From Candidatus Collierbacteria bacterium (GTDB lineage: Bacteria > Patescibacteriota > Microgenomatia > UBA1400 > JACPES01), in assembly GCA_016183365.1 (NCBI GenBank), contig JACPES010000003.1, forward strand, positions 269,051-333,050: a DNA stretch of 64,000 nt, written 5' to 3'. This document shows, in pieces, positions 10,501 through 48,776 of the stretch (the stretch's first letter is position 1; each line of letters opens with the position of its first letter). Under the pieces are notes generated by a model. The model did not search any database. It was given only the letters and a program-made list of their open reading frames with translations, and was not told where the DNA came from. The translations under genes and the position numbers were made by a program.

Positions 10501-10511
10501 AAAAACAAAAT

Positions 10512-17438: not shown

Positions 17439-17476
17439 TTGAAAATGGTCTGTAAAGTATCTGATACTTTACACCC

Positions 17477-18250: not shown

Positions 18251-18269
18251 TAGTTTATAGGTTAATTTT

Positions 18270-18386
18270 GTCATTCCGAGCGATCCGCCAGCCAGCGGAG
18301 AGCGTGGGAATCTTTTGTCAGATTGCCACGCTGTCCCGAAGTAACCTCGTCTCGCAAAGCGAGATCCTGCTTTGCAGGACAATGAC
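18270..18386. repeat. GC-rich palindromic repeat element with GTCATTCCGAGCGA … GGACAATGAC termini (full-length member), intergenic between divergent uppP and ugd
   Basis: Several internal hairpins (TCTCGCAAAGCGAGA, CCTGCTTTGCAGG). Both termini carry outward-facing ATGs (…aATGac / gtCAT…). Confidence 0.7.
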
Positions 18387-18420
18387 AACTACAAAACTTG
18401 TTTATGTTATCATTTCATTC

Positions 18421-26117: not shown

Positions 26118-27124
26118 ATTCAGTTAAATTTTTCTCACTCTTTACTCTTTACTCATTACTCTTTACTTCTTTCGTTCTTTACTCCTATACCCAAGTCGAT
26201 CTCAACCTGACATTGTCGAGCAATCCTGTCTATCAAACCATTCAACGTCAATTGACAAATATCGGTTACTTCAACCGCCCGCAATCCACCGCAATATTCT
26301 TTGCTATCCTAGCAGGACTTGTTGCTTGTTACTTGTTAATTGTTATTTTTCACGACAAATGGAAACTAACCACTAGGCAACTCTGGCAATTGCTTTTTGC
26401 TTTTTGCTTTTTGCTTTTTGTTTCCTATCCCGCTTTTGCCCACGACATTTTCAATTACATGTTTGACGCTAGGACTGTAGTTAAGTACGCTCAAAATCCC
26501 TACCTGACTACTCCTCTGGATTTTCCAAATGACGATTGGACTAGATTCATGCGTTGGACCCATGTTAGTTCGGTTTATCCTCCTGGTTGGCTGATAACCA
26601 CGATACCGTTTTATCTGTTAGGATTTGGGAAATTCACTTTAACGTTGCTATCGTTTAAATTCTTGGGGATGATTTCGTTTTTGGCATCCAGTTGGTTGAT
26701 GCTAAAAATTGCCGGACGACACGCCTGGATTCTCTGGAGTTTCAATCCGATGATTTTGATTGAGTCTCTAAGCAGTGTCCACAATGAAATCACTATGGTA
26801 GCTTTTACTCTGTTGGCCTTTTACATTGTCGGTGTCAACAAAAAAAATACAGCGCCTTATTTCTCGCTAATTTTTGCTGGACTTATAAAGTATATTTCGT
26901 TTCTGTTACTTCCATTCATAAACCACCCCGCGCGCGCTGCCGTCGCCGCTTGGGTTGGAGCATTGGCATTTTTCATTATGCGTGAAGTCAATCCGTGGTA
27001 TATCATCTTGCCGGTATCAATATCATTTATGTCAAAAAATAGATTTCTGACTAAATTTGCCATAATTGCCAGTTTGTTTGTAATGTATCGTTACTACCCA
27101 TGCGTAGCTATTTTTTCCTGTTAG
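26114..27124 (+). CDS. Polytopic membrane protein of unknown function
   Basis: 336 aa, multiple TM helices. Contains heptamer tandem repeats (TTTACTC)n and (TGCTTTT)n. Confidence 0.45.
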   Translation: MNSVKFFSLFTLYSLLFTSFVLYSYTQVDLNLTLSSNPVYQTIQRQLTNIGYFNRPQSTAIFFAILAGLVACYLLIVIFHDKWKLTTRQLWQLLFAFCFLLFVSYPAFAHDIFNYMFDARTVVKYAQNPYLTTPLDFPNDDWTRFMRWTHVSSVYPPGWLITTIPFYLLGFGKFTLTLLSFKFLGMISFLASSWLMLKIAGRHAWILWSFNPMILIESLSSVHNEITMVAFTLLAFYIVGVNKKNTAPYFSLIFAGLIKYISFLLLPFINHPARAAVAAWVGALAFFIMREVNPWYIILPVSISFMSKNRFLTKFAIIASLFVMYRYYPCVAIFSC

Positions 27125-28812
27125 TTTCCATAATTATTTTTTTATCGTTAACCGGGCCATCAATCGTTTCCGGTAATTTCGCTTTTGTGTTTGACATGGG
27201 TCGCGATCAGCTGTGGATCAGAGATATGGTGGAATTGCGGCGTCCGACTTTGATCGGTCCGTGGGGGTCAATTGCCGGTATTTTCTTTGGGCCGCTATGG
27301 TTCTATTTGTTATCTATCCCGTATTTGATTTTTAAAGGTGACCCGCGGGGAGCGGTTCTAGTTTCTCTGGCGGCTAATTTACTGACGATGATAATCGGAT
27401 GGCAATTTTTGCGGAAAAACAAACATCCGGTCGCCGGGAATATTTTCGCGATCTTGTATTCAGTTTCTCCTTTAACGATTAGCCTTTCATCTTTTGCTTT
27501 CCATGCTAATTTATTGCCTTTAATTACGCTGTTATTTTTTATCGGTCTCTATGTTTTTCATAAATCATTATTCATAAATCATAAATCATTGCTTGGTCTG
27601 TCTTTAGCGGCTCTATCCGCCTCTCTAGCCTATCATTTTGAACCCGCCGCCGGAGTGATGTTAACGGGGTTCATGACTGTTTTAATCTTAATAAATATGC
27701 GGCAAATGAAGATATTTCAATCATTTAAATCATTAAAAAATATATTAATAGCAATTATCTTATTTTTGATCCCCTTCCTCCCTCAACTTGTTTTTGAACT
27801 CCGCCACGATTTCATCCAAACCAAATCTTTGTTTGGCTATTTTAGCGGAGAAAACACCAGTTTGGGCGGGGTTCTGCCTTTAAGCGAAAGAATTGTTGAG
27901 CGGGGAATTAAGCTGGGCGAAACCTTGACATATTCCTTATTCACCATTGATTCTAATCTTTGGAAAATAGTTTTCTTGGGACTTTTTATCCTCGCGCTTC
28001 TTGCTTTAACAAAATTGAAAAAGTTCACCCTGAATCTCGATAGTTTTACTCTTTACTCTTTACTCTTTACCCTTTACTTTCTATCTTTCCATTATTTGGC
28101 TTATACATTTTTGTTTCCGGCAGAATTAAAAGGTTGGTATCTTAGCGGTTTCGTTTCAATTCATATTTTGGCATTTAGTTTGATTTGTGAATTTGTTTAT
28201 GGAGCCCCACGCTCTATCAATAGTGCGACATCCCGCTCGTTTCGCCAGAGCTTCAACGAGGCGAGCCTAAGCGCAATCCATCCACGGGTAAACTCACGAT
28301 TTTCTTGCGAAAGGCGGGATAAATCTAGCCATTTATTTATTTTAACCATTTTGATATTTATAATTATTAGGAATATTAATCCTTTTGATCGGATTTTCGG
28401 CGGACAAAAACCTCCGCTCCCTCCGGAAACTTTCAGCGCCCAAATTGAAGTGGTGGATTGGATCTATCGAGATGCAATTCATAAGGATAAGCCGTTTGCG
28501 GTTTACACCTACACTCCGCCGGTTTATGACTATCAATATCAGTATCTTTTATGGTGGCGCGGGATAAATAAATATAAGTTATTGCCTGCCGAGTATAGTT
28601 ATAAGCCGGGTGAGACCTCTTATCTTCAATATAAAGATCGATTTGTTTCCTCAATCTGGAAACCTAAAGACGCCCAGTTAATGTATTTGATAATTGAGCC
28701 GGATAATCTGGAGTTCAGAGTAGCCGGATGGATGGGAAATTTTTTAAGGTCTGATAAACTGGAAACCCGGGAATTTCCTTCTAAAGTCAAAGTTTTATTC
28801 GGAAGCTTATAA
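27100..28812 (+). CDS. GT-C-like polytopic membrane protein (paralog of 23812 and 51903) carrying a roughly 110-bp in-frame repeat-element insertion
   Basis: N-terminal FDMGRDQLW…GPWGSIAGIFFGPLWFYLL pattern. GC-rich insertion at 28187..28297. Confidence 0.5.
   Translation: MRSYFFLLVSIIIFLSLTGPSIVSGNFAFVFDMGRDQLWIRDMVELRRPTLIGPWGSIAGIFFGPLWFYLLSIPYLIFKGDPRGAVLVSLAANLLTMIIGWQFLRKNKHPVAGNIFAILYSVSPLTISLSSFAFHANLLPLITLLFFIGLYVFHKSLFINHKSLLGLSLAALSASLAYHFEPAAGVMLTGFMTVLILINMRQMKIFQSFKSLKNILIAIILFLIPFLPQLVFELRHDFIQTKSLFGYFSGENTSLGGVLPLSERIVERGIKLGETLTYSLFTIDSNLWKIVFLGLFILALLALTKLKKFTLNLDSFTLYSLLFTLYFLSFHYLAYTFLFPAELKGWYLSGFVSIHILAFSLICEFVYGAPRSINSATSRSFRQSFNEASLSAIHPRVNSRFSCERRDKSSHLFILTILIFIIIRNINPFDRIFGGQKPPLPPETFSAQIEVVDWIYRDAIHKDKPFAVYTYTPPVYDYQYQYLLWWRGINKYKLLPAEYSYKPGETSYLQYKDRFVSSIWKPKDAQLMYLIIEPDNLEFRVAGWMGNFLRSDKLETREFPSKVKVLFGSL
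28187..28297. repeat. GC-rich repeat element with GTGAATTTG … AAACTCAC termini inserted in frame in a GT-C gene
   Basis: Encodes …EFVYGAPRSINSATSRSFRQSFNEASLSAIHPRVNS…. Related to the 32749 element (GTGAAGTTT…AAACTTCAC). Confidence 0.55.
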
Positions 28813-28819
28813 TTTAAAT

Positions 28820-30361
28820 ATGTGGAAACGCCGCGCCCTAGCCATTACCGCCTTAACAATTTTATATCTCTCTTCAAGATTAATTAATTTAACCCTAATC
28901 CCGATTTTTACGGATGAAGCTATTTACATTCGTTGGGGCCAGATCGCTCTTCAGGATCCGGTTCACCGGTTTATTTCCTTGGAAGACGGCAAACAGCCTT
29001 TGTTTATTTGGTTGATGTTGCCGATGTTAAAGTGGGTTTCGGATCCGTTAATTGCAGGCAGATTGGTGTCCGTGTTCTCCGGAGCGATAACTCTAGCGGG
29101 ATTGATGGCGTTGTCATGGAAATTATTCGGGGAGAGAACCGGCTGGATAGCCGGATTGACGTACATCATTTCTCCATTCTTTCTATTGTATGATCGGCTG
29201 GCGCTCTACGATTCTCTGACAACAGTGCTGATGATTTGGGCCCTTTTCTTATCTGTCCTGTTGGCAGAGACATTGCGAATTGATGTTGCTTTGCTTTTAG
29301 GCATGACTGTCGGAGCGGGATTTCTGACGAAATCATCTGCGCAGTTTGCGCTGATTCTTCTGCCAACGACGTTTTTATTGTTTGATTGGAAGGAGCGAGG
29401 GAAAGGGAAAAGATTATTGAAATTGGCAGGATTAGGGATTATTGTCGTCTTGTTGTCCAAAGGTATCGAGTTAATACTTCGGCTGGCGCCTCTTTCGCAC
29501 ATGATTGCCTTAAAGGATCACACATTTATTGTGACGACTCAAGAATTCATTGCGCATCCATTTGAAAGATTGCTTGGAAATATGGGTGGACTGTGGAATT
29601 GGATGCAAGCGTATGCGACGTATCCCTTGTTGGCGCTTTTTGCCGTTGGAATGGCGTACGGCTTGAAAAAATACAAGAGAAGAACGACGTTCTTGAGCTT
29701 GTGGTTTCTTGTTCCGTTTCTGGCTCTGGCGTCATTTGGCAAAGTATTGTATCCGCGATATTTGCTGTTTATGATAGCTCCGCTTCTTCCGATTATTGCT
29801 CTTGGAATTTCGGAGATAGTATCCCTTGTGCCCGAACTCCGTACCGACGCCCTTCGCGAACGCCCCCGCTCAGCGGGACGGCGAGAAGTAAATCCGGTAT
29901 GGGGCTTTATTATAACCTTCCTTTTAATTTCTTATCCGATTTGGTTCTCCTATAAAATTATTTTTGATCCACTATCCGCTCCGTTACCGAAAGTCGACAG
30001 GTTCCAATTTTTTGACGATTGGCCTTCCGGATATGGCATAAACGAGGTAATTGGTTTTATAAAAGTTAGGGCTGAAACCCAAAAAATTTTTGTCGGCACC
30101 GAAGGCACATTTGGCCTGACGCCGGCAGCCTTGAATATTTATCTGAAAGATAATCCGAACGTTGAAGTCAAAGGATATTGGCCGATATCTGACGGGATAA
30201 AAGAATTGACAGAAATCGCGCTTACCGGAAAACCGACTTATGTCTTATTCAAAGATACCCAAAAGCCAAATCCCGAATGGCCGCTGGAATTTATAGTGAA
30301 ATATCAAAAAGGCAGAGGAGAAGTCTACATGTCTTTATATCATATTAATTCTAAAAAGTGA
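28820..30361 (+). CDS. GT-C superfamily glycosyltransferase (ArnT/PMT family)
   Basis: IPIFTDEAIYIRWGQ… in the first loop. Polytopic N-terminal half plus soluble C-terminal domain. In-frame GC-rich insertion at 29828..29889. Confidence 0.6.
   Translation: MWKRRALAITALTILYLSSRLINLTLIPIFTDEAIYIRWGQIALQDPVHRFISLEDGKQPLFIWLMLPMLKWVSDPLIAGRLVSVFSGAITLAGLMALSWKLFGERTGWIAGLTYIISPFFLLYDRLALYDSLTTVLMIWALFLSVLLAETLRIDVALLLGMTVGAGFLTKSSAQFALILLPTTFLLFDWKERGKGKRLLKLAGLGIIVVLLSKGIELILRLAPLSHMIALKDHTFIVTTQEFIAHPFERLLGNMGGLWNWMQAYATYPLLALFAVGMAYGLKKYKRRTTFLSLWFLVPFLALASFGKVLYPRYLLFMIAPLLPIIALGISEIVSLVPELRTDALRERPRSAGRREVNPVWGFIITFLLISYPIWFSYKIIFDPLSAPLPKVDRFQFFDDWPSGYGINEVIGFIKVRAETQKIFVGTEGTFGLTPAALNIYLKDNPNVEVKGYWPISDGIKELTEIALTGKPTYVLFKDTQKPNPEWPLEFIVKYQKGRGEVYMSLYHINSKK
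29828..29889. repeat. GC-rich in-frame insertion with CCGTACCG and CCCGCTCAGCGGGACG modules
   Basis: Shares modules with the 32749 element (CCGTACCG; CCCGCTCCGCGGGACG). Encodes VPELRTDALRERPRSAGRRE. Confidence 0.5.
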
Positions 30362-31644
30362 AGTACCTGGTTGCGGTTTTATTTATACTAGCTGTTGTCA
30401 GAAGTTTTTATCATTTACCCCACTCCAGTTTTGACGCCGACGAAGAGTACTTTGCCAAATCCGGAAAATCAATTCTGTCGGGAAACTTGACTTTAATCGG
30501 TCAGGAAACCGGAGTGGGTGCCCTCTATCACGCGCCTTTGTTCAATTACTTGATTGCTTTTTTTCTTTGGATTTTTCATGGAAATCCCTTGGTGGTCAAG
30601 GGGCTGGGGGCGGCATTCGCCGCCATTACCGTCCCGGCATTTTTCTTGATCGGAAGAAAGCTGACGTCCACCACGGCGGCCTTCTTTTCCTCGCTCCTGG
30701 TTTTATTTAGCGATAGCTTTTTGGGGTTGGAATCGTTTGCTCCGAATATTACTCCTCTGACTCTTCTGGTATTATTTTTTTTGTTAGCGGCGGCACATAA
30801 TTGTAAAAGCAAGTTCAAATCAATGATTCTTGGAGCCTTGGTCGGTTTATCTGCTCACTTCCATATCGTGGGTATGATGTTAATTCCATCATTGGTGATT
30901 ATCAATTGGAGATGGTTGCCCGTATTCCTGTTGTTTGTTTCACCGCTAATATTTTTCGATTTCCGTCATAATCATCTAATTACGAATAACGCTTTGTCGT
31001 TTTTTGCCAATCCCGGCATCGGGACCCCTCTTATCTTCCGGTTGAACACATATTTTCTTTCTCTTGCCGACCACATCAACCTCGGGGTGAGCGCCGGAAT
31101 TTTCATTCCGGTGGCGATACTAGCGCTAATTTGGGGATTATTTACTCCAAGAATTACCCGGATGATTAAAATAGTATTGTTACTTCCTCTGTTTTTCTTC
31201 CTTCTATACTCCAAGCATCTGGTGCCGTATTACGCGATCGTTTCCTGGACGCCATTCATTCTGATATTTGGTGTGGCGCTAGAAATGATCTGGGAAAAAA
31301 GATCAATCGGAAAAATGGTTGTTTTGGCATACCTGGGCCTATTTATCTATGGAAATACTATCAGTCTATTCCGGTGGACGGCGGTCAGAGGGATTAATAA
31401 TAAAATCGCCGCCTTGGAGTACATTAAGAAAGAGTCAGGGAGTCGTCCGATTTATATTTCCAGAACCATGGAGAGGGCAACCAACTTTGGTTTTGATTAT
31501 CTGATGGATTATGTCGCTTTGGTGTCAACCGGAAATCCCAATGACCCTACTTATACGCTGGTAGTCCCGGCAGATTGGCAGGGAATTAAACCGGACAAAC
31601 AATTTGGCGATATCGGAATAGTATTGCCGCATGAAGGAAAATAG
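30358..31644 (+). CDS. GT-C-like polytopic membrane protein
   Basis: GTG start at 30358. SFDADEEYFAKSG acidic first-loop motif. About 11 TM helices. Confidence 0.5.
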   Translation: MKYLVAVLFILAVVRSFYHLPHSSFDADEEYFAKSGKSILSGNLTLIGQETGVGALYHAPLFNYLIAFFLWIFHGNPLVVKGLGAAFAAITVPAFFLIGRKLTSTTAAFFSSLLVLFSDSFLGLESFAPNITPLTLLVLFFLLAAAHNCKSKFKSMILGALVGLSAHFHIVGMMLIPSLVIINWRWLPVFLLFVSPLIFFDFRHNHLITNNALSFFANPGIGTPLIFRLNTYFLSLADHINLGVSAGIFIPVAILALIWGLFTPRITRMIKIVLLLPLFFFLLYSKHLVPYYAIVSWTPFILIFGVALEMIWEKRSIGKMVVLAYLGLFIYGNTISLFRWTAVRGINNKIAALEYIKKESGSRPIYISRTMERATNFGFDYLMDYVALVSTGNPNDPTYTLVVPADWQGIKPDKQFGDIGIVLPHEGK

Positions 31645-31746
31645 AAATACATTAATCATCTGGATATTCCGGGGGAATCCTCTGGTTGTCAATAGATTAA
31701 ATGTCGACTTCGGTCTGGTGGCAACGGAGCCGAAAACAATCAAACA

Positions 31747-33315
31747 ATGAACGATAAGCAAAAAGATAAAATTATGCTGCCTTTTATAATTTTTATCTCC
31801 GTTATTCTTTTTTTCTATCGGCTCGGGGAGACTGCTTTAACCAATTGGGACGAGGCTTGGTTTGGATCTGTGGCCCAAGACATGGTTTCTTCCGGTAATC
31901 TTTTGACAGGGAAATGGAATGGGCAAACATTTTTTTATGAACCCCCGCTTTTGGTTTGGTTGTTGTCTTTGTCGATTAAAGTTTTCGGCGAGAGCGAATT
32001 TTGGCTGCGGTCGGTCAGCGCTATAGCCGGACTTTTTACGGTTGTCGGTTGTTATTTTTTGACATTTCGAATCACAAAATCAAGACCGGCCGGAATTTTG
32101 TCAGGGCTGATAATTTTGTCTGATATCGAGTTTCTGTTCCGCAGCCGCCAAGTCAACGTCGAAATCCTTCTGACAGTTTTATTGTTGTGGTCGATGATTT
32201 TTATCTCTAAAGCTTATGAAAGCAATCGGCGACGGTGGATATTTTTTTCCGCTATTTGTTTAGGTTTGGCCTTTTTAACTAAACGAGCCAGTCCGGTTTT
32301 AGCTCTGCCGGCAGTCGGTTATCTTTTGTTAAAAACAACCTTCCGTGAACATCCTGTTCCTTTGTTTATATTCTTTATAACTTTTATAACCGTCACTTTA
32401 CCCTGGTATTTGCTTAGTTATTTTAAATGGGGGGACCAATTTATTAATGAGTTTTTTATCGGATATACTCTCAATAAAATTAAATCAGTCAACGTCAGTA
32501 TCGGAACTTCACCATTTTTTTACTTAAATTCTATTAAGCATGCCTTTAAATTCTGGTCTCTTTTAATTCCGCTTGCGGCCGTTTGGGCAGCGGTAACAGC
32601 TTTCCGTGACCGGAAAATTGCGGGAATAATGATTTTCATTTTGACTTTTCTATTTTTTCTGACCTTAGCGCCAATCAAATCTTCGTGGTTTTTCTTACCT
32701 CCTCATCCATTCTTGGCTATTTTGATAGGATTATTTATTTCAAGAATTGTGAAGTTTATCCTGCGAAGCCCCGTACCGTCTGGTACAGGGCGAAGCAGGA
32801 TCCCGCTCCGCGGGACGAAACTTCACAATCAAATAATTGTCATTTCAGACGCAGCAAAGCGAAGATCCGGAATTTATGCGGATATTCTATATAGCTTTCA
32901 ACTCGCCTCGCGACGAAGCGGGTTCAGGGTTGGGGTGATATTAGTTGTAATAATCTCTTTGGCGGGATGGCAACTTTATCGTTACCGTCACGATTACATA
33001 GTTCCCGACACCACCGGAAACCAAGCGATGATTTCCAGTTTGGCCGGGGCATTATCTAACAAAGGCGAACCGATTTATTTGGATGACGAATATCTGCCGG
33101 TGGCGGTTTTTTACAGCCATAAAAAAATTATTCCTTTAAGATTTAGCCGGACGGTTAATCGCGTCCCGAGCCAAACTTCTATTCCTGATAACAGTCTGAT
33201 TTTAACCAATCCGGAAACATTTCCCGCTTTAAAATCCGCTACCGGAATTTTGTTTGAGGAGCTTTTTTCCGTTAGGGATTTGATTTTGGTTAGAGCTAAA
33301 GGATTTAAGGTTTAA
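31747..33315 (+). CDS. GT-C superfamily glycosyltransferase (ArnT / PMT family, GT83/GT39-like)
   Basis: LTNWDEAWFGSVAQDMVSSGNLLTGKWNGQTFFYEPPLLVWL, a textbook ArnT/PMT N-terminal signature. Carries a roughly 190-bp in-frame GC-rich insertion (32749..32935). Confidence 0.7.
   Translation: MNDKQKDKIMLPFIIFISVILFFYRLGETALTNWDEAWFGSVAQDMVSSGNLLTGKWNGQTFFYEPPLLVWLLSLSIKVFGESEFWLRSVSAIAGLFTVVGCYFLTFRITKSRPAGILSGLIILSDIEFLFRSRQVNVEILLTVLLLWSMIFISKAYESNRRRWIFFSAICLGLAFLTKRASPVLALPAVGYLLLKTTFREHPVPLFIFFITFITVTLPWYLLSYFKWGDQFINEFFIGYTLNKIKSVNVSIGTSPFFYLNSIKHAFKFWSLLIPLAAVWAAVTAFRDRKIAGIMIFILTFLFFLTLAPIKSSWFFLPPHPFLAILIGLFISRIVKFILRSPVPSGTGRSRIPLRGTKLHNQIIVISDAAKRRSGIYADILYSFQLASRRSGFRVGVILVVIISLAGWQLYRYRHDYIVPDTTGNQAMISSLAGALSNKGEPIYLDDEYLPVAVFYSHKKIIPLRFSRTVNRVPSQTSIPDNSLILTNPETFPALKSATGILFEELFSVRDLILVRAKGFKV
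32749..32935. repeat. Composite GC-rich repeat insertion in frame in the ArnT-like gene
   Basis: Three parts: a GTGAAGTTT…AAACTTCAC hairpin element (32749..32826), a GTCATTTCAGACGC…CCGGAAT element (32839..32873) and a GC-rich tail. Encodes …KFILRSPVPSGTGRSRIPLRGTKLHNQIIVISDAAKRRSG…LASRRSGFRVG…. Confidence 0.6.
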
Positions 33316-34476
33316 AATCAGGAAAATCAATCCACTGGTTAAAAAATGGCTGGATAAAAACGGATTTAATTGCAGAGGGAGATAAGGATCTTTGATATAA
33401 AAAATCAGTAAGAAATAGGTTAGGCCGACTATTGCCAGGTCTTTGAATTTTTTAGTTTGAATAAATTTTGCGATTAGAACTATCCAAACGGGAATTAAAA
33501 TAGTGTAATGATGCTGCCACACAAAAACCGGCAAAAATAGCAAAACTATTATTGTTAAATGCCAAAAATCAATAAAGTCATTCCTAGTTGTTCCGGTTTT
33601 TATAATTTTTATAATTCTTATAGCTCTTACTCCTAAAATAAAACTAATCCCTAACCTAATCGCCGAATTTAAATTTCCGAAAACCCCAAATCTCGCTATC
33701 AACGCCGTTATCGACTGATTCATGTAGGAAGCGTTAACAGTTTCTTTGGTTACTTCACCCATCAGACCGGGAACAACCGACACAAAATAATATTTTGTCA
33801 AATCCCAACCGAAAACGAACCCTCCCATAACTGTTAGAAACGCAAAAGTGAAAACATACCAGTTAACCACTTTCCATTTTTTTCTAATCAAAAAATAAAT
33901 TAGTATCGGCGCCGGAGTCAACTTGAGAATAGTTGCCAAACCAAATAAAATTCCAGAAACAGTATCTTTTTTCCTGATTGTGACAAAATAATAACTGCCG
34001 ACAATCAATGCCAAAACGATCAAATTAATCTGCCCAAGCGCTAAAGTTAATTTTACCGGAAACATTTTTAAACACAGCGTAAAAATCAGCCATTTAATAA
34101 CCAATGATCCACGAGATCCCTCGACTACGCTACGTTCCGCTTGGGATGACGGGGAGGAACGATCAAAGTTGAGAATCCGTAAAGTCATGGATACCGTCAA
34201 CCAAAGACTTACTACTGACAAAACTGTAAATAACCATTCTGATAATTCTGTCGGTGCTGCCGCCAATGGAAGAAAAAAAAGGGTAGTGGCCGGCGAATAG
34301 TTATACCGGTCAAAAAATTTCAGCTTATAAGGATTTTCTCCATTCAAAGTCGCTTTTGTACCATCAATATAGACGCTAAAATCATTAAGAGGAAAGTTTT
34401 TTACCAAATTTGCCAACGGCACTACCTGACGGTATAAAATTATTGCTACAATCAAGAGTATTATTCTTTTAGCCAT
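33229..34476 (-). CDS. Polytopic membrane protein, GT87/DUF2029-like (putative mannosyltransferase)
   Basis: DFSVYIDGTKATLNGENPY, resembling the GT87 DFxxYYxAAxxxxxGxNPY motif. Start trimmed to the ATG at 34474-34476, which shares a CATG with the divergent 34475 gene. The 3' end overlaps the convergent 31747 gene. Confidence 0.45.
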   Translation of the reverse strand: MAKRIILLIVAIILYRQVVPLANLVKNFPLNDFSVYIDGTKATLNGENPYKLKFFDRYNYSPATTLFFLPLAAAPTELSEWLFTVLSVVSLWLTVSMTLRILNFDRSSPSSQAERSVVEGSRGSLVIKWLIFTLCLKMFPVKLTLALGQINLIVLALIVGSYYFVTIRKKDTVSGILFGLATILKLTPAPILIYFLIRKKWKVVNWYVFTFAFLTVMGGFVFGWDLTKYYFVSVVPGLMGEVTKETVNASYMNQSITALIARFGVFGNLNSAIRLGISFILGVRAIRIIKIIKTGTTRNDFIDFWHLTIIVLLFLPVFVWQHHYTILIPVWIVLIAKFIQTKKFKDLAIVGLTYFLLIFYIKDPYLPLQLNPFLSSHFLTSGLIFLILNLKSFSSNQNQIPNGKKLLKQNSGSGF

Positions 34477-36766
34477 GAAATCTTTCAACCATTTAACCAT
34501 TCTAACCATTTTAACTTTTGTAGTCACCACAATATTTTACTTCAAGCCCATCTGGAAAAATAAGTTGATTCCTTTTCCAGGCCGCCTGCTGGTATCTTAT
34601 TTTAGCCCCTGGAAAGAAGAATCATGGCCCGAGTTTCCGACCGGAGTTCCGCGTAAAGGTCTATTGGGTTTTGATACCGCCAGAATGATGGGTTCCTGGC
34701 GCAGTTTTATTACAAACGAACTTAAACAAGGCAGATTGCCGACCTGGAACCCGCATCAGTTCGCCGGCGCCCCGCTTTTAGCCAATTTCCAATCGGCCAC
34801 TTTCTTTCCTCCCAATCTAATTTATCTCCTGCTTCCTTTTTCAATCGCCTGGACAATTTTAGTCATTTTTCAACCCTTGTTAGCAAGTTTTGGGATGTAT
34901 TTATTGCTTAAATCACAGTTTAAAGACAAAAACCTAATAACTAACAACCAAATACTAATAACTATTCTTCCTTCTCTCGCCTACGGTTTTTCCGCCTGGA
35001 TGTCTGTTTGGATAGAATGGAATATTCACGGTTTTGTTTACGCCCTGCTTCCATTTGTGCTCCTTTTTATCCATAAGAGAAAAGCCATTTTAATCATTTT
35101 AACCATTTCAGCCATTATTTTTGCCGGTCATCCGCAAATGGCCTTTATTGCCCTGACGGCTGCCGCGCTCTTTGCCGCGGTCAATCACCGTCTTAAAAAA
35201 TTTCTGTTGTCAGCCGCGGTCGCCCTTCTAATTACTTCTGTCCAGTGGATTCCCGCTGTTCGTTACTACCAAGAGGCCAGCCGGGAACAATCCTCAAGCG
35301 AATTTACTTACGAAAAAACTCTCTTACCGTGGGGCCAAATCTCGCAATTAATAGTTCCTAATTATCTGGGAAATTCCGCCACCGGAAATTTCCGCGGCCA
35401 AGCAAATTTTGTAGAAACCACCGCTTATTCAGGAATAGCAATTTTGGGATTTGCGATTATGGGATTGTTGGCAAGAAACAAGAAACAAGAAGTAAAATTT
35501 GCCGTTTTTCTCCTTCTGACAATTTTCCTTTTTGTTCTCCCCAACCCATTTTCATTTCTTGTAGGCAAACTCAACATCCCGATTCTTTCCACCAGCGTCG
35601 CCAGTCGCTGGCTGATGCTTTTGCCTCTGGCGGTAACTTTGTTAGCTGCCGCCGGTATCGACCGATTTATTGAACTAACTACATCAAACCCTACTAAAAA
35701 GGCCAGGCCTTTTCCGGAAAGGCCTGGCCTTTTCTCTCCCGCCGTTTTTGTTTTTATCCTAATAGCTGGTCTGTGGATATACGCTTTGCTATCTCCTTCT
35801 GAACTCCGTTCGGTTTCCATCCGCAATCTGATGATACCCAGCGCCATCGCCGGCTTATTCCTATTAACATTGTCATTCCGGACTGCCGACCCGCCTGCAA
35901 GCGCCTGGAGCGCTAGCGACTGGCGGGCAGGTCGGCAGTCTGTAATGAAGATTTTATTGTTTTCTTTGGTTGTTTTGTCTATCGGTGAGCTTATTTTATT
36001 CGGTTGGAAAACAATGCCGTACACTGAAAAAAATTTCGTTTATCCGGAGACTCCGGTGTTAGAAAAATTACAGGAGTTTTCCAAAGATGGTAGTAGATTT
36101 GCATCTACTGATGGCAGCGTAATCGAGTCAAATTTTGCCACTTATTATAAGTTATATGATTTATCAGGCTACGATGCTTTGTACCCGCGCAGAATCGGAG
36201 AATTGATTTGGGTAGCTCAAAATAAAGGGCAACCTGTAGCCGATTTTTCCCGGTCTACCGTGGTCACTCCCACCTCTCCTTCACTGACCAAAGATAATCT
36301 TTGGAACTTGGCCGGCGTCCGCTGGATCATCAATAAAGATGACCTGCTGTCAGAACATCCCGGCCAAAGATCTAATGATTTATCTCCCGACTTCAAACTT
36401 ATCTGGGAAGAAGGCAAGTGGCAAATCTACGAAAACCTTAACGCATTTCCTCGGGCTTTCTTTATTAAGAGTGGGGATTGGATTGGTGAGGGTGATGACG
36501 TGATTAGTAGCTCCTTAAATCTCTCAACCTCTTTAGTCTCCCTTATCACCCCGGCTAGAATTGTCTTCTATCAGCCGACAAAGGTGGCGATAGAGGTTAG
36601 CGCCCCAGCTGATGGTTATCTGGTATTAACCGATACTTTTTATCCCGGCTGGACGGCTACCGTTGATGGTCCTTTGGCGGAGATTGTTCCGGCGTTTCAT
36701 GCTTTTAGAGCCGTTCCGGTCTCTCAAGGAAATCATATTGTTAAGTTTAGTTACGGTTCTTTATAA
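34475..36766 (+). CDS. YfhO-like GT-C polytopic membrane protein (paralog of 56130 and 59927)
   Basis: Shared N-terminal pattern: …YFSPWKEE…GRLPTWNPHQFAGAPLLANFQSATFFPP…. Carries in-frame palindromes at 35697..35734 and 35872..35948 and a (CAAGAAA)3 repeat. Confidence 0.5.
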   Translation: MKSFNHLTILTILTFVVTTIFYFKPIWKNKLIPFPGRLLVSYFSPWKEESWPEFPTGVPRKGLLGFDTARMMGSWRSFITNELKQGRLPTWNPHQFAGAPLLANFQSATFFPPNLIYLLLPFSIAWTILVIFQPLLASFGMYLLLKSQFKDKNLITNNQILITILPSLAYGFSAWMSVWIEWNIHGFVYALLPFVLLFIHKRKAILIILTISAIIFAGHPQMAFIALTAAALFAAVNHRLKKFLLSAAVALLITSVQWIPAVRYYQEASREQSSSEFTYEKTLLPWGQISQLIVPNYLGNSATGNFRGQANFVETTAYSGIAILGFAIMGLLARNKKQEVKFAVFLLLTIFLFVLPNPFSFLVGKLNIPILSTSVASRWLMLLPLAVTLLAAAGIDRFIELTTSNPTKKARPFPERPGLFSPAVFVFILIAGLWIYALLSPSELRSVSIRNLMIPSAIAGLFLLTLSFRTADPPASAWSASDWRAGRQSVMKILLFSLVVLSIGELILFGWKTMPYTEKNFVYPETPVLEKLQEFSKDGSRFASTDGSVIESNFATYYKLYDLSGYDALYPRRIGELIWVAQNKGQPVADFSRSTVVTPTSPSLTKDNLWNLAGVRWIINKDDLLSEHPGQRSNDLSPDFKLIWEEGKWQIYENLNAFPRAFFIKSGDWIGEGDDVISSSLNLSTSLVSLITPARIVFYQPTKVAIEVSAPADGYLVLTDTFYPGWTATVDGPLAEIVPAFHAFRAVPVSQGNHIVKFSYGSL
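35697..35734. repeat. Near-perfect palindrome AAAAGGCCAGGCCTTTTCCGGAAAGGCCTGGCCTTTT, in frame in a CDS
   Basis: Member of the AAGGCCWGGCC family (see 52251, 52534, 57168). Encodes KKARPFPERPGLFS. Confidence 0.75.
35872..35948. repeat. GC-rich palindromic element GTCATTCCGGACTGCCGACCCGCC…GGCGGGCAGGTCGGCAGTC…TGTAATGA, in frame in a CDS
   Basis: Long imperfect stem. The 5' terminus is identical to the 22955 element. Encodes LSFRTADPPASAWSASDWRAGRQSVMK. Confidence 0.65.
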
Positions 36767-36773: not shown

Positions 36774-37448
36774 ATGAAAATCTCAATTATTATCCCTGCT
36801 TTCAATGAAGGAAAAACTATTTCCAAAATAATTGAGTCTTTAAAAAAAGTTGATGGATTCCATAAAGAAATTATTGTGGTTGATGACGCGTCAACTGACG
36901 GAACATATAAAAAACTTCAAGATACTAAAGGAATAAAAGTTATCCGCCATCCAAAAAATTTAGGTAAAGGTTCGGCTATCAGAACCGGGATAAAGTCTTC
37001 CTCTGGCGATTATGTATTAGTCCAAGACGCCGATCTGGAGTACGATCCTCAAGACATACTGACCATGATAAAGCCTATTAACCAAGGGAAGGCGGAAGTC
37101 GTTTACGGGTCCAGATTTACCGGCTCGCGGCGCAATATGTTTTTTTGGCACTGGATGGGAAACCAGTTATTGACTCTGGTGACCAATATTCTCTATAACA
37201 CCACTCTTTCGGACATGGAAACTTGTTATAAATTAATTCCCTTGAAATTAATTAAATCGTTAAATTTGAGAGCTAAAAGGTTTGAATTTGAGCCGGAAGT
37301 GACCGTCAAGATTTTAAAAAGAGGCATCAGAATTTGGGAAGTCCCGATTTCCTATGCCGGCCGGGAATATCATGAGGGCAAGAAAATTACTTGGCGAGAT
37401 GGTATTCCGGCATTGTTTACATTACTAAAGTATCGTTTTGTGGATTGA
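36774..37448 (+). CDS. Family-2 glycosyltransferase (DPM-synthase-like)
   Basis: ATG at 36774. MKISIIIPAFNEGKTI…IVVDDASTDGT…VQDADLEYDP. Confidence 0.8.
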   Translation: MKISIIIPAFNEGKTISKIIESLKKVDGFHKEIIVVDDASTDGTYKKLQDTKGIKVIRHPKNLGKGSAIRTGIKSSSGDYVLVQDADLEYDPQDILTMIKPINQGKAEVVYGSRFTGSRRNMFFWHWMGNQLLTLVTNILYNTTLSDMETCYKLIPLKLIKSLNLRAKRFEFEPEVTVKILKRGIRIWEVPISYAGREYHEGKKITWRDGIPALFTLLKYRFVD

Positions 37449-37454
37449 AGGAAA

Positions 37455-38837
37455 ATGAACAAAAAACAAAAAACAAAAAACATCTTTGCTCTTTGCTCTT
37501 TGCTCTTTGCTCTTTTACCCCTATTCTGGAATCTCTTGCGTCCAGGTTTCTATTCTTCCGATGACGGCGAATGGATGGTAATTAGGTTAACCGCTTTTCA
37601 TGAATCTTTCCGCAAAGGGCAAATTCCGGTTAGGTGGTTGTCCAGATTAAATCATGAATATGGATATCCGGTAACTAATTTTCTTTATCCATTGCCATTT
37701 TATCTGGCTGAACCATTTTATGCGCTAACCAGGGATCCGGTTTTAGCCGTAAAAATAGTTATGGGATTGGCGATAGCCAGCATGGCTGTCGGATCATACG
37801 TTTTATTTAAAAAATGGGGAACAGCGGAGGGGATTATCGGTGCTTTAACATATTCTTATTCTCCATATGTAGTTTTTAATCTTTACCAGCGTGGTTCATT
37901 GGGAGAACTAGTGGCTATGGGAATAGTTCCATGGGTATTTTGGGCCATTTCTTCAAAAAAGCTGTTATTGTCATCGTTTTTTACCGCGGCATTAATAACA
38001 GCCCATAACGTGGTTGCCGCGCTTTTTTTGCCCCTAGTCGTGGTCTGTGTTTTGTGGAAATTTAAAACCAGAGCATGGTTTATGGTTCATGGTTTATGGT
38101 TTATGCTCGCTTTTGGCTTGAGCGCCTTCTTCTGGTTCCCGGCTTTGGCCGAGTACCGTTTTGTCCGGACATCTCAAATCGCGGTTTCGGATTTTAGTAA
38201 CGAATATCTTTCTTTACAAAATGCTTTTGAACGGACCGGACCAATCTCCGTTTTGACTAATTTTGGCTTGCCCTTGTTCTTTTTAACCGAAAATTCTAAA
38301 TGGTTTTGGAACTTATTCAAACCTTTGCAAATAATTCAGTTTCCCTGGAGATTATTAAATTTATTCTCTTTTATTTCTTCAGGAATTATTTCGTTTTTAA
38401 TTTTTAAATTAAAAAAATACCGCTTATTTCAATCTTTAATTATAATTTTTATAGCTGTTATAACATTTATTTCAGTTTTTCCCTTTCTGTCTCCAAAGTC
38501 TTTTACCAATTATCCTCCGAGCTATTATCAAACTAACGATGATAGTACCACGGTTAGAGCCGAATATACCCCGATCTGGGTAAATGATTGGCCTTTGGTT
38601 CGTCCGGAAACTCCCGTAAAACATTACTACCCCGGTCTAAAGTTGTTTGTGAACGGATCGGAAAAATTTGTTAATCCTGGTGAATATAACGGAGAGATAA
38701 GAAGTTCCGTTTTTGGCGAAGGCGGTAAGATCAAATTCATTTGGAGCGAGACGCCCTTGAGGGCAGCAACGGATTTAATATCAATTTTTAGTTTTTTGAT
38801 TATTTTATTTTTGTTTAAATATAGGTGGATAATATGA
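37455..38837 (+). CDS. Polytopic membrane protein (putative GT-C; paralog of 38834)
   Basis: The N-terminus is encoded by (AAAAAAC)3(TTTGCTC)4. GQIPVRWLSRLNHEYGYPVTNFLYPLPFY is conserved with the downstream paralog. Confidence 0.45.
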   Translation: MNKKQKTKNIFALCSLLFALLPLFWNLLRPGFYSSDDGEWMVIRLTAFHESFRKGQIPVRWLSRLNHEYGYPVTNFLYPLPFYLAEPFYALTRDPVLAVKIVMGLAIASMAVGSYVLFKKWGTAEGIIGALTYSYSPYVVFNLYQRGSLGELVAMGIVPWVFWAISSKKLLLSSFFTAALITAHNVVAALFLPLVVVCVLWKFKTRAWFMVHGLWFMLAFGLSAFFWFPALAEYRFVRTSQIAVSDFSNEYLSLQNAFERTGPISVLTNFGLPLFFLTENSKWFWNLFKPLQIIQFPWRLLNLFSFISSGIISFLIFKLKKYRLFQSLIIIFIAVITFISVFPFLSPKSFTNYPPSYYQTNDDSTTVRAEYTPIWVNDWPLVRPETPVKHYYPGLKLFVNGSEKFVNPGEYNGEIRSSVFGEGGKIKFIWSETPLRAATDLISIFSFLIILFLFKYRWII

Positions 38838-40357: not shown

Positions 40358-41831
40358 GCAAAAAACAGTTAAAGGGTTGGTGGCCCTGATAGCCAGAACC
40401 GGTCTGCTGCAGGTTATAGCGGTTGTAGCGACATTTATTTTGACGGTATTTTTAGATCCAGCTCAATTTGGAGTTTTTGCGATCGTGGCCGCAGCAGTTG
40501 ACATTTTGGTTTATTTTTCAGATATCGGTTTAGCCGGAGCGTTGATCCAGAAGCAAGATATAAACGAAAAAGATCTGGCTACAACTTTTACGATTCAGCA
40601 GATATTAAGTTTGACTTTGTTGGGTCTTGGATTTTTAGCCGGCAGCTTGGTGGCTAATATTTACTCTCTTTCCTTAGCCGGAATTTGGTTGTTCAGAGCG
40701 TTATTGGTTTCAGTTTTTTTGTCAGGCTTGAAAACGATTCCCAGTGTTTTATTGGAAAGAAAACTTGATTTTATTAAAGTCGTTACCGTCCAGATTGCGG
40801 AAACATTAATTTTTTACGGACTGGCGGTATTTTTGGCGTGGAAAGGGTTTGGAGTATCCAGTTTTTCTTGGGCGGTTTTATTCAGGAGTGTCATTGGGTT
40901 GATAATGATTTATATTTTAGCGCCATGGAGACCGCGAATCGGGATTGACAGGATTTCATTCAAAAAACTGATATCGTTTGGAATGCCGTTTCAATTAAAT
41001 AGTCTTTTAGGTTTGGTAAAAGATCGGATGTTGGTGGCATATTACGGAGCGATTTTGTCTCCGGTTCATGTCGGGTATCTACAGTGGGCGGAAAGATGGT
41101 CTCTTTTCCCGTTGAGAATGGTGGTGGATAATGTCTCAAAGGTGACTTTTCCGGCTTATTCCAGACTGCAGGCAGAACGCGATCATTTAGTCAAAGCTAT
41201 TGAAAAATCAATTTTTTTTACCGGTCTTTTCATTTTCCCGATCTTAATAGGACTGATAGTTTTGGCTCCGACTGCCCTGGAAGTTATTCCCAAATATAAT
41301 AAATGGCAGCCGGCTCTTTTGGCTTTAGGTTTATTTTCCATAAATGCTATGTGGTCTTCAATTTCGACTACAATTACTAACGCGTTTGCGGCTATGGGGA
41401 AAATTAATATTAATTTGAAATTAATGTTAATGTGGACCGTGCTGACATGGATTTTGACTCCATTATTGATGTCTAAATACGGTTATAATGGCGTGGCCGC
41501 CGCTTCGGCTTTGGTAGCTTCATCTTCAATAATTCCGATGATAATCCTTAAAAGGATATTACCGATAAGGCTATTCTCGAATATCTGGCCGCAATTAATC
41601 AACGCGTTAATAATGGGGTTAATAATCCGTTATGTTAATTTAAAATTACCATTTACTATTTACTCTTTGCTATTTACCGTTCTCCTCGGTGCTATACTTT
41701 ATGGTGCGTTATTAATGGTTTTAATGCCTAAAAAACTGATAGCAGAAATAAAATCAGTCTGGTTGTTGTCATCCCGAGCGAAGCCAGGTACCGGCCGGAA
41801 CCTGGCGAAGTCGAGGGATCTAACGGAGTGA
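40335..41831 (+). CDS. Wzx-type oligosaccharide flippase (MOP superfamily polysaccharide biosynthesis protein)
   Basis: About 14 TM helices with a Wzx-like N-terminus (…LVALIARTGLLQVIAVVATFILTVFLDPAQFGVFAIVAAAVDILVYFSDIGLAGALIQ). The last 22 residues are encoded by the palindromic element at 41768..41832. Confidence 0.65.
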   Translation: MDKISQVKQKTVKGLVALIARTGLLQVIAVVATFILTVFLDPAQFGVFAIVAAAVDILVYFSDIGLAGALIQKQDINEKDLATTFTIQQILSLTLLGLGFLAGSLVANIYSLSLAGIWLFRALLVSVFLSGLKTIPSVLLERKLDFIKVVTVQIAETLIFYGLAVFLAWKGFGVSSFSWAVLFRSVIGLIMIYILAPWRPRIGIDRISFKKLISFGMPFQLNSLLGLVKDRMLVAYYGAILSPVHVGYLQWAERWSLFPLRMVVDNVSKVTFPAYSRLQAERDHLVKAIEKSIFFTGLFIFPILIGLIVLAPTALEVIPKYNKWQPALLALGLFSINAMWSSISTTITNAFAAMGKININLKLMLMWTVLTWILTPLLMSKYGYNGVAAASALVASSSIIPMIILKRILPIRLFSNIWPQLINALIMGLIIRYVNLKLPFTIYSLLFTVLLGAILYGALLMVLMPKKLIAEIKSVWLLSSRAKPGTGRNLAKSRDLTE

Positions 41832-43906: not shown

Positions 43907-44130
43907 AACGGGGTGGAAAGATTGGATGAATGTTAAGGTTCTGCAAAAGGTAGTTATTGTGGACGAGATAGATAATATTTTGCTTCAAATTCTCATTTTT
44001 GACTATTTGCTATCAGGCTAAAGTTAAAGGAATTTCTCCAAATGTGGTTTTAAGCCAAGAATATGCCGAATACCGCTGGCTCTCAAAATCAGAAGCGCTA
44101 TCGCTCAATTCAATTCCTATCTTTTTAATC
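43907..44130 (+). pseudogene. Possible NUDIX hydrolase remnant (frameshifted fragments)
   Basis: Frame 1: MKGKIAVTGWKDWMNVKVLQKVVIVDEIDNILLQIL. Another frame: …SQEYAEYRWLSKSEALSLNSIPI, which is a NUDIX C-terminal-like pattern. No intact ORF. Weak evidence. Confidence 0.25.
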
Positions 44131-44136
44131 TTTGCT

Positions 44137-44170
44137 TTTAACTCTACGCGGCCGCGGATAGAAAAGAGCA
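44137..44170 (+). promoter_or_regulatory. Second copy of the TTAACTCT-CGCGGCCGCG-TAGAAAAGAGCA motif, abutting the ATG at 44172
   Basis: Near-identical to 10469..10500 upstream of argS. Confidence 0.45.
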
Positions 44171-44171
44171 T

Positions 44172-44873: not shown

Positions 44874-44898
44874 TTCCATTATTTTCGCTTGACTACTA

Positions 44899-45865: not shown

Positions 45866-45896
45866 TTTCTCCTAAAACTTGATTGAGAAAAATTTG

Positions 45897-48700: not shown

Positions 48701-48776
48701 AATAATAAATGGTTATAATGGTTAATAAATGGTTTAAATGATTGAGATCTTAATTTTTTTAGCCATTTTAACCATT

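Follow-up and report, generated by a model that had tools for sequence, protein, structure and literature searches.

The described systems closest to the elements reported here are small palindromic repeats of bacteria and mitochondria. Rickettsia palindromic elements (RPEs) lie in frame in many unrelated, apparently functional genes, where they are translated as additional stretches of peptide; the bacterium that carries them is host-dependent, with a genome that is small and AT-rich (PMC10969869, PMC3733652). REPs and REPINs, which are mobilised by RAYTs (IS200/IS605-type HUH), are palindromes of 20-40 nt, often present as inverted doublets that can form a larger hairpin; they show no target-site duplication and have occasional intragenic copies (PMC3733652). 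Bacterial MITEs (Correia, ERIC, BOX, etc.) are non-autonomous repeats that, where they lie within a gene, may give rise to in-frame fusions (PMC10969869). The GC clusters of yeast mitochondria (GC42 is one) and the double-hairpin or repetitive hairpin elements of fungal and sponge mitochondria are GC-rich palindromes, each about 30-45 nt long, whose surrounding genome is AT-rich; their stems are more conserved than their loops, their units merge, shuffle and nest, and the mechanism that mobilises them is unresolved (PMC4478555, PMC2800124).

We analysed a 64-kb stretch of a Collierbacteria chromosome (the window), in which three genes carry in-frame GC-rich inserts, A, B and C (56-77% GC in a window of 41% GC; Table 1). 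The genomes of Patescibacteria are tiny and densely packed with genes, which leaves selfish DNA little space. We consider it probable that the inserts are small GC-rich hairpin repeats in an AT-rich Patescibacteria genome, i.e., selfish non-autonomous DNA of the same kind as REPs, RPEs and mitochondrial GC clusters. The loop of B holds a 30-nt double-hairpin element (DHE, TCCCGCGAAGCGGGA+TCCCGCTCYGCGGGA), of the form T-CCCGC-GAA-GCGGG-A then T-CCCGC-TCY-GCGGG-A. Literature searches found neither a prior description of the DHE nor its sequence (a 14-nt fragment matched unrelated B. subtilis DNA-nanoparticle work), and no publication linking Patescibacteria with REPs or MITEs.

The DHE resembles RPEs in lying in frame in unrelated genes, but RPEs measure about 100-150 bp, bear a CGTC tag and are confined to Rickettsia, whereas the DHE is 30 nt, nests in other hairpins and occurs on Patescibacteria metagenome contigs. 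By the combination that defines RPEs (100-150 bp, a family peptide and a CGTC tag) the DHE falls outside that class, and A, which has one partial relative, is alone in matching the size (120 nt). Like REPs, the DHE is a short palindromic unit in at least 106 distinct contexts; however, among the 106 contexts listed the GTAG tag is absent (0/106) and CGTC rare (3/106), TGTC being found in 66/106, and half of the copies are intragenic while REPs are mostly extragenic. No RAYT gene was found in the available sequence (the 64-kb window). The likeness to mitochondrial GC clusters is one of described features, namely a GC-rich unit in an AT-rich genome, conserved stems and units that merge and nest. 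Those clusters reside in organelles, and GC42 may duplicate an AG target, whereas the DHE sits in a Collierbacteria chromosome, has duplication-free allele pairs and is commonly inserted in coding frame. MITEs differ in their length of 70-300 bp, in terminal inverted repeats (15-30 bp) that match those of a parent IS, and in their target duplications; the DHE is far smaller, without parent-IS-type termini and without target duplication. Finally, DNA of the sequence d(GCGAAGC) folds into a mini-hairpin of unusual stability whose loop is GAA. This heptamer lies at the heart of hairpin 1 of the DHE and of the GTCAT elements; in itself a structural motif rather than a genetic element, it serves here as repeat core and site of nested insertion.

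Table 1. Features of the window discussed in the text
Feature	Position	Strand	Description
Gene 1	27100-28812		ORF; insert A in frame; Pfam PMT_2 (GT-C), weakly
Element A	28201-28322	+	120-nt in-frame insert; limits 28201-28320 or 28203-28322
Gene 2	28820-30361		ORF; insert C in frame; Pfam PMT_2 (GT-C)
Element C	29830-29889	+	In-frame insert, about 57-60 nt
Intervening gene	30358-31644		Between insert-bearing genes; without insert; 428 aa, 95% identical to L006
Gene 4	31747-33315		ORF; insert B in frame; Pfam PMT_2 (GT-C)
Element B, whole	32749-32826	+	Arms GTGAAGTTT (32749-32757) and AAACTTCAC (32818-32826); nested elements inside
DHE copy in B	32759-32815	+	TCCTGCGAAGC / AGGA TCCCGCTCCGCGGGA, split by the insert 32770-32796
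Nested insert in B	32770-32796	+	27 nt, in the GAA loop of DHE hairpin 1; absent from L007
GTCAT-family module	32839-32873	+	GTCATTTCAGACGCAGCAAAGCGAAGATCCGGAAT; left arm partly decayed
Further insert	32875-32922	+	48 nt; contains hairpin AACTCGCCTCGCGACGAAGCGGGTT; unique to this genome
Second window DHE	18348-18381	+	TCTCGCAAAGCGAGA+TCCTGCTTTGCAGGA; between divergent genes
Nested architecture	41778-41811	+	GCGAAGC, 20-nt hairpin CAGGTACCGGCCGGAACCTG, GCGAAGT; inside GTCAT element 41768-41820
Palindrome	52534-52566	+	AAGGCCTGGCC...GGCCAGGCCTT; centre is the DHE-type hairpin CCCGCTCAGCGGG

Inserts in the GT-C genes

The initial annotation placed a single repeat family, with termini GTGAAKTTT...AAACTYCAC, in frame in three consecutive GT-C genes. 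The in-frame insertions were borne out, as A, B and C are each a clean gap relative to insert-free orthologues, and the orthologue comparison that it had proposed showed that presence or absence of the inserts varies among relatives at 70-95% protein identity (a scan of the genome collection for the orthologous locus returned two loci). The genes are not strictly consecutive, since an insert-free gene intervenes, and the inserts belong to three different sequence families, for which a common MAFFT alignment gave nothing meaningful. We infer that the copies occupy loops connecting the last transmembrane helices of the three GT-C glycosyltransferases, at places that can accept additional residues. 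An AlphaFold model of gene 4 shows the insert region as low-confidence coil between two helices; its mean pLDDT was 61, so it was used solely for this point.

The left terminus assigned to A (28187-28195) consists of host codons for Cys-Glu-Phe that are conserved in insert-free orthologues; the terminal motif is matched in B alone, and its resemblance in A is due to chance. A is a clean 120-nt gap relative to L006 and L003 and is absent in L002-L006, its limits being two-way because AT is ambiguous at both junctions; this true extent reaches 25 nt beyond the end first given. It combines a small hairpin (28210-28227) with a long imperfect hairpin in which ATCCCGC (28230-28236) closes with the distant GCGGGAT (28316-28322), and its fold is weak (z = -1.1 to -2.5). 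Although A had been thought to carry both shared hairpin modules, it contains neither CCGTACCG nor a local CCCGC-N3-GCGGG hairpin and belongs to a different, longer family than B. An element in L117 shares homology with the core of A (local score 59 vs 21.7 +/- 4.2 for shuffles) and is the one, partial relative of A.

B folds strongly (-45 kcal/mol; z = -6.95 as RNA and -7.2 as DNA) and has perfect inverted termini of 9 nt. A cargo-free version of this hairpin, GTGAAGTTT-ACG-AAACTTCAC, already occupies the same codons in orthologues L003-L006; the GTGAAKTTT/AAACTYCAC repeat is a locus-specific hairpin hosting a nested element, and does not form element ends. An uninterrupted 30-nt DHE lies at the B site in L007, which differs here from L006 by exactly 30 nt within the hairpin loop; L006 and L003, the closest relatives, are without the DHE that the more distant L007 carries. 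The window copy would be translated in an LRS..RIPLRG frame, is matched by covariance model R1 at 32782-32817 (E = 1.9e-5) and is split by a 20-nt hairpin, CCCGTACCGTCTGGTACAGG (32770-32789), with a second copy of GCGAAGC (32790-32796) that duplicates the 7 nt at 32763-32769. Downstream, the GTCAT module matches L007 2608-2643 at 33/36 nt, and its peptide VIPDAAKRRSGIY is found at the same site in P0005, P0009 and P0013; the module is absent in L003-L006. The further insert at 32875-32922 is absent in L007 and all other orthologues, and no relative of it was found in 833 kb of loci. The earlier description of 32749-32935 as composite stands, with a short form of B plus the GTCAT module in L007 and the bare hairpin alone in L006 and L003.

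Gene 2 exceeds its L006 and L003 counterparts by 18-19 aa; given a variable loop, the limits of C are approximate. The 5' half of C is akin to the T family, which is multi-copy (L004 gene 2, L006 gene 1, L047), and the 3' half consists of one DHE-type hairpin, CCCGCTCAGCGGG (29865-29877). C scores 45 locally against L006 1329-1408; shuffled C, scored against the copy of this element in L004, gave 21 +/- 4 with a maximum of 38. The family assignment of C rests on about 40 similar bases. A shared CCCGCTC(A/C)-type module was confirmed, CCCGCTCNGCGGGAC being present in B and C and, as a near-copy, in the 52534 palindrome.

Could the inserts be ordinary lineage-specific loop expansions, with GC-rich Arg/Pro/Gly/Ala codons and coincidental shared motifs? 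All three do lie in variable loops, A is without a close relative, and searches with insert peptides gave nothing meaningful. Neither the A peptide (40 aa) nor the T-family peptide (41 aa) had a match; the latter is part of a called L004 gene that ought to be in the database, which makes it a positive control, so these negatives carry no information, and a HMMER search with the 63-aa B+GTCAT peptide returned two tandem-repeat proteins, which are spurious. Against loop expansion stand the fold of B (z = -7), the count of the CCCGCTCNGCGGGAC-type motif (four where 0.09 were expected), and identical 30-mers at more than 100 unrelated sites. We regard it as very improbable overall, and for B and C it is already contradicted.

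The DHE in metagenomes and in coding sequence

The search for further copies that had been called for found the DHE at 18348-18381, three times in L002, once in L007 and widely in metagenomes, the 64-kb window holding two in all, a low copy number that speaks against a mobile repeat. The metagenome scan returned at least 120 stretches in at least 106 distinct flanking contexts, on contigs whose named hosts are Collierbacteria, Shapirobacteria and "Patescibacteria group"; the DHE has 77% GC against a contig median of 41%. As these loci were chosen by exact pattern, their uniformity is partly built in; extra, diverged copies were found in the same contigs. The pattern gave 0 matches in IMG/VR viral contigs, and BLAST of the DHE against plasmids and phages gave none. 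Stem positions are paired in 98.3% of cells, and two pairs vary in a compensatory manner (CG 49 / UA 15 and UA 60 / CG 9), each with one of its two columns outside the search pattern and hence unconstrained. The second window copy adjoins a GTCAT element at 18270-18312 and folds with z = -4.2; its score with R1 (44.8 bits) carries no independent weight, as the copy is in the seed of the model.

Among the 106 contexts listed, 54 place the DHE within ORFs of at least 150 aa, where 61 would be expected at random. The hosts are unrelated (IleRS, LeuRS, PPDK, RNR, ComM, DUF2298, DUF4012, a TraG-like ATPase and a Ser/Thr kinase) and include essential proteins, both cytosolic and membrane; 17/19 of the DHE-bearing ORFs are called as genes in public data, with exact sequences. 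None of the six frames of the DHE contains a stop codon. One frame, SREAGSRSAG, is strongly preferred (phase 0 in 33/50 independent copies, p = 2e-6), and insert lengths are 3n at every coding site examined. Judged from this frame bias, the copies are probably translated, and the bias points to constraint on the peptide rather than a need for the site.

This last point bears on the idea that selection maintains the double hairpin as a functional signal, adaptive in genes. It might be a site for DNA uptake or protein binding, an element for RNA stability or termination, or a pause in translation that aids membrane insertion. The compensatory changes that maintain the stems, enrichment near the 5' ends of ORFs (16 copies vs 8 expected), the existence of intergenic copies (18348-18381) and strong conservation over many datasets would all suit such a role. 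It is, however, hard to reconcile with hosts that are unrelated, cytosolic and membrane proteins alike, with near-identical orthologues that manage without a DHE, or with a density (two in 64 kb) far below that of known uptake sequences; there is no consistent terminator-type T-run and no Rfam match, and the frame bias indicates peptide constraint. We therefore think a functional signal unlikely.

Reading frame would be irrelevant if the elements were removed at the RNA level, as introns are, or from the protein. The elements are compact, stably folded and RNA-capable, and Patescibacteria rRNA genes are known to carry insertions, a precedent in favour of removal. The strong frame preference, 3n lengths and stop-free frames are unexpected for something that is spliced out, and no intron or ribozyme family was matched: Rfam found two tRNAs and nothing else in the whole window, and no match at E <= 1 over 28100-33000. 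Removal is the least credible of the alternatives considered here.

Nesting, and gain or loss, of elements

The DHE and related hairpins recur inside one another. A 54-nt insert at the 41768-41820 locus is absent in L003, and its nested hairpin (41785-41804) is of the GTACCG type that also occurs in B. The palindrome at 52534-52566 lies in frame within ORF 51903-53453. Nesting was found in B, at 41778-41811 and at 52534, and the DHE is central in other palindromes of L038, L039 and L050. The earlier notion of a hairpin toolkit common to several families survives in that shared modules combine and nest, while a single family defined by its termini does not exist.

Allele pairs show the DHE arriving or leaving cleanly. 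P0068 and P0069 are 95% identical and their sole indel is the DHE (33 nt), without target duplication; the ComM-like P0073 and P0074 are 93% identical and exactly 30 nt apart, inside an A-run and again with no duplication. Such filled and empty pairs are compatible with insertion or with precise palindrome loss. Perfect 7-nt repeats do flank 15 DHE copies where 0.8 were expected, but a 7-bp target-site duplication was rejected as a general rule, since most of these repeats (11/15) lie in tandem heptamer arrays and the clean allele pairs gain 30 or 33 nt without duplication.

An alternative that accommodates much of this is that the hairpins are made locally, by replication errors at quasi-palindromes (template switching, fold-back priming, slippage), so that palindromes grow and shrink in place and are not copied in. 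There are hairpins within hairpins, the GCGAAGC heptamer is doubled around the nested ones (32763-32796 and 41778-41811), the DHE is often embedded in tandem heptamer arrays, filled and empty pairs show no target duplication, and intrastrand correction could yield the compensatory changes. What local genesis cannot give is the same 30-mer at at least 106 unrelated sites in many datasets, or one 80-nt T-family sequence shared by two distinct genes. As the sole source of the elements it thus seems improbable to us, if somewhat less so than a functional signal; acting alongside copying, it could yet be responsible for nesting, arrays and loss.

In the mobile-repeat explanation that we prefer, new DHE copies are the exact additions of 30 nt, sometimes 33 nt, seen without target-site duplication in A/T-rich tracts or at the tips of hairpins that were already there. 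Elements accordingly nest and build composites such as B (a hairpin holding a DHE holding a 20-nt hairpin) and 32749-32935. Copying may proceed by structure-specific single-strand (HUH/RAYT-like) transposition, or by repair or template-switch copying at hairpins, either of which fits the absence of duplications; no transposase was found among the 20 window ORFs scanned. In coding DNA, the survivors would be frame-keeping copies alone, and the DHE, being 3n long and stop-free, would be read as a short Ser/Arg/Gly/Ala/Pro loop, most often SREAGSRSAG.

More tentatively, the DHE may represent an undescribed, Patescibacteria-wide class of ultra-small mobile element, moved by a putative structure-specific enzyme into hairpin tips and A/T tracts; this is a possibility that we would not yet favour. 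Such elements would leave no target duplication, write SREAGSRSAG into aminoacyl-tRNA synthetases and ribonucleotide reductase, and build composites by nesting (B, 32749-32935 and perhaps the A-like 120-nt units), and they may be linked to the tandem heptamer arrays in these genomes.

A repeat that lives within coding sequence because any of its frames can be translated would account for many of the unusual GC-rich, low-complexity loops predicted in Patescibacteria proteins, and its copies mark loop positions in essential enzymes that tolerate insertions of 10 residues. The DHE would also serve as a simple marker of recent gain and loss in uncultivated lineages. How hairpin mini-elements spread without transposase-like ends is a question common to mitochondrial GC clusters and CGTC-type REPs, and the clean filled and empty allele pairs make it testable here.

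In-frame inserts in the GT-C genes

Four tandem membrane-protein genes lie in the region 27.1-33.3 kb. All four match Pfam PMT_2 (GT-C), gene 1 only below the curated cut-off, and they are part of a long polysaccharide/glycosylation cluster whose synteny is kept in related contigs. The window has a GC content of 41%, and genes 1, 4 and 2 carry the GC-rich segments A, B and C respectively. These three inserts are real and, as the initial annotation proposed, in frame: aligned at the protein and DNA level with relatives, drawn from the related contigs L002-L007 among others, each is a clean gap. The proteins of genes 1-4 are 570, 513, 428 and 522 aa long in the window, vs 545, 494, 428 and 465 aa in L006. 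All three inserts sit between the last two hydrophobic helices, before the C-terminal domain, and a low-confidence AlphaFold model renders that of gene 4 as coil, flanked by helices 319-339 and 392-416. The interrupted genes are not strictly consecutive, since gene 3, which has no insert, stands among them. Gene 3 is present in the window, L006 and L007 and missing from L003-L005, so the content of the cluster itself varies among close relatives.

The inserts had been read as one repeat family with termini GTGAAKTTT...AAACTYCAC. At A this first motif does not match; the supposed left terminus GTGAATTT (28187) consists of host codons for Cys-Glu-Phe that are conserved in orthologues without the insert, and the supposed right terminus is internal to the insert. 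The gap at A relative to L006 and L003 is exactly 120 nt, with AT ambiguous at both ends. The fold of A is weak (z = -1.1 to -2.5), and its chief feature is a long imperfect hairpin that ATCCCGC and GCGGGAT close. The metagenome locus L117 has an element homologous to the core of A (TTCGCCAGAGCTTCAACGAGGCGAGCC and flanks; score 59 vs 21.7 +/- 4.2 for shuffles), so A probably belongs to a separate, longer family.

The 9-nt arms of element B match perfectly, and its fold is exceptional (z about -7). At this site L003-L006 have just GTGAAGTTT-ACG-AAACTTCAC, encoding VKF-TKLH, and L007 has a 30-nt double hairpin within the hairpin loop; the window copy is the L007-type double hairpin with 27 nt in its first loop, namely a 20-nt hairpin and a second GCGAAGC. 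Since the hairpin is bare in L003-L006 and holds the double-hairpin element (DHE) in L007, the arms of B are not element termini but form a local hairpin with a nested element inside it. Across lineages (22 orthologous proteins and the DNA of L002) the B loop contains nothing, the bare hairpin, the DHE, a module of the GTCAT repeat family or an AAGGCC-type palindrome, and as different lineages hold different elements there, it is a hot spot or else the one tolerant site.

Element C and a longer insert in L004 occupy the same loop of gene 2. The L004 insert (peptide GTPESRTRALATHGRRPWEQAS) has a 91% identical copy in L006, in another gene, and a 92% identical copy in the unrelated contig L047; this T-family element of ~80 nt, with peptide GTPE[SP]RTRALATHGRRPWEQAS, is a separate in-frame mobile family. 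Approximately 40 nt of C are common to the T family (score 45 vs L006; with the L004 copy of this element as target, shuffled C scored 21 +/- 4). The 3' end of C is a single hairpin, CCCGCTCAGCGGG, which is also the centre of the 52534 palindrome. The initial annotation thus stands as regards the inserts, their frame, this shared hairpin module and the composite structure of 32749-32935 (B, the GTCAT module and a unique insert), while its shared termini and single-family grouping do not.

Coordinates of genes, inserts and repeat elements (window positions unless a contig or locus is named)
Feature	Positions	Strand
GT-C gene 1	27100-28812	
GT-C gene 2	28820-30361	
GT-C gene 3	30358-31644	
GT-C gene 4	31747-33315	
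Insert A	28201/3-28320/2	
Insert B	32749-32826	
Insert C	~29830-29889	
GTCAT module (common to L007) and unique 48-nt hairpin-bearing insert	32827-32935	
T-family element	L004 1847-1921; L006 1329-1408; L047 13577-13626	
52534 palindrome	52534-52566	
Intergenic DHE variant	18348-18381	
Spacer with GTCAT element and DHE variant	18255-18384	
Divergent gene at spacer	17477-18388	
481-aa ORF at spacer	18268-19710	
Three DHE copies	L043 5255-5707	
DHE with flank repeat and half element	L102 473-540	
TraG/VirB4-like ATPase gene	L091 3-3455	
Tandem 7-mer/9-mer repeats	26141-26178, 28045-28096, 37444-37529, 61531-61602, 34486-34528, 35083-35116, 48743-48803, 33591-33629	
Long palindromes inside ORFs	35697-35733, 52241-52273, 54568-54602, 60280-60320, 55274-55300	
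NotI-like palindrome family	10473-10510, 44125-44173, 44889-44980, 45892-45978	
AT-rich palindrome	17451-17473, 58031-58053	
RmuC	3246-4265	-
GIY-YIG protein	13746-14141	-
Staphylococcal-nuclease homologue	15950-16615	+

Spread and coding of the double-hairpin element

One metagenome scan with the pattern GCGRAGCRGGAYCCYGCTCYGCGGG found the DHE in at least 120 stretches; the matches listed, with duplicates removed, represent 106 different flank contexts from dozens of datasets. Among these listed matches the GC content of the element is 77%, vs a contig median of 41% (5-95%: 36-50%). The consensus is (TG)T-CCCGC-GAA-GCGGG-A-T-CCCGC-TCY-GCGGG-A(CA). In the alignment 98.3% of stem cells are paired, and compensatory changes occur at two stem pairs (CG 49 / UA 15; UA 60 / CG 9), each including one column unconstrained by the search pattern. 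R1, a covariance model built for the DHE, matched two copies in the window (B and an intergenic variant that belonged to the R1 seed). Outside it, R1 found three copies in L002 and a single one in L007, as well as additional diverged copies in metagenome loci. Host proteins with taxon names came from Candidatus Shapirobacteria and 'Patescibacteria group bacterium', and no copies were found in a pattern scan of IMG/VR viral contigs or by BLAST against plasmids and phages.

The spacer holding the intergenic variant is almost wholly GTCAT element and DHE, and naive ORF calls run both divergent genes through them. Elsewhere, L043 has three copies in 450 nt, and in L102 the flank of a DHE recurs after it, together with half an element.

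Among the matches listed, ORFs of at least 150 aa contain 54 of the 106 copies at a depth of at least 30 codons, vs 61 expected at random, and 16 copies lie near ORF 5' ends, vs 8 expected. Host proteins include IleRS, LeuRS, PPDK/PEP synthase, class II ribonucleotide reductase, DUF2298, DUF4012, a Ser/Thr kinase, a ComM-like Mg-chelatase and a TraG-like ATPase with an intein. Of 19 host ORFs tested, 17 occur in public data as called genes of identical sequence. The DHE is free of stop codons in every frame. Once related contexts were removed, 33 of 50 copies among the matches listed were in phase 0 (p = 2e-6) and 26 of the 50 encoded SREAGSRSAG (p = 1e-8), an excess that is best explained by selection on a translated peptide. 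The ATPase gene of L091, with its LAGLIDADG intein and DHE, combines two kinds of selfish in-frame insert.

Filled and empty alleles

Pairs of filled and empty alleles show recent gain or precise loss, the direction of which they do not distinguish. Two DUF4012 proteins, 95% identical, have the DHE (33 nt) as their sole indel. Between two ComM-like proteins of 93% identity the difference is precisely the 30-mer, which lies in an A-run without duplication. L007 and L006 differ by exactly 30 nt in the hairpin loop, and L002 has three DHE copies where the window and L003 have empty sites.

Of the 106 copies among the matches listed, 15 are directly flanked by perfect direct repeats of 7 nt, vs 0.8 expected. 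We do not read these as target duplications, because tandem heptamer arrays account for 11 of the 15 and at one site the array is already there in the empty allele. GCGAAGC is duplicated around both nested 20-nt hairpins. The DHE is often embedded in tandem copies of a single heptamer, which lie on both of its sides (L044, L073, L028, L053, L080, L106, L009, L085 and L125), e.g., CAAGATA x3 / DHE / CAAGATA x2, and the same heptamer can be common to different DHE contigs.

Other repeats of the window and relation to known elements

The window also contains tandem 7-mer/9-mer repeats (units TTTACTC, AACAAAA, TTTGCTC, AACCATTTT and TTATAATTT), several families of which recur across genes; by their position they seem to lie in N-terminal Lys-rich or hydrophobic helix-coding parts of several membrane-protein genes. 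Some ORFs of at least 120 aa contain long perfect palindromes (stems of 12-19 bp), among them a perfect one of the GTCAT family and one of 41 nt whose stem measures 19 bp. A further family is built around the NotI-like palindrome CGCGGCCGCG; two of its copies, of 82 nt and 1 kb apart, are 98% identical. An AT-rich palindrome, TGTAAAGTATC(T/A)GATACTTTACA, has two copies. The small GIY-YIG domain protein of the window adjoins two tRNA genes. There is no known transposase among RmuC, the GIY-YIG protein and the staphylococcal-nuclease homologue, but structure-specific nucleases are candidates for a link to the hairpin elements.

In the searchable literature we found neither the DHE described nor intragenic palindromic repeats reported from Patescibacteria. 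Rickettsia palindromic elements insert in frame within genes (PMC10969869, PMC3733652), and the DHE behaves likewise but differs from them in size and tag. Its behaviour also matches that of REPs/REPINs, whose short palindromes and doublets come with no duplication; unlike REPs, however, it lacks the GTAG/CGTC tag and is not extragenic. It differs from MITEs in size and has no TIR or TSD. The DHE also behaves like mitochondrial GC clusters and hairpin elements, whose GC-rich units, set in AT-rich DNA, merge and nest (PMC4478555, PMC2800124). The underlying phenomenon, the mechanism of which we infer, is broader than the initial annotation stated: a set of hairpin mini-elements that are nested and can be translated. 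At least one of these, a 30-nt double hairpin, is widespread.
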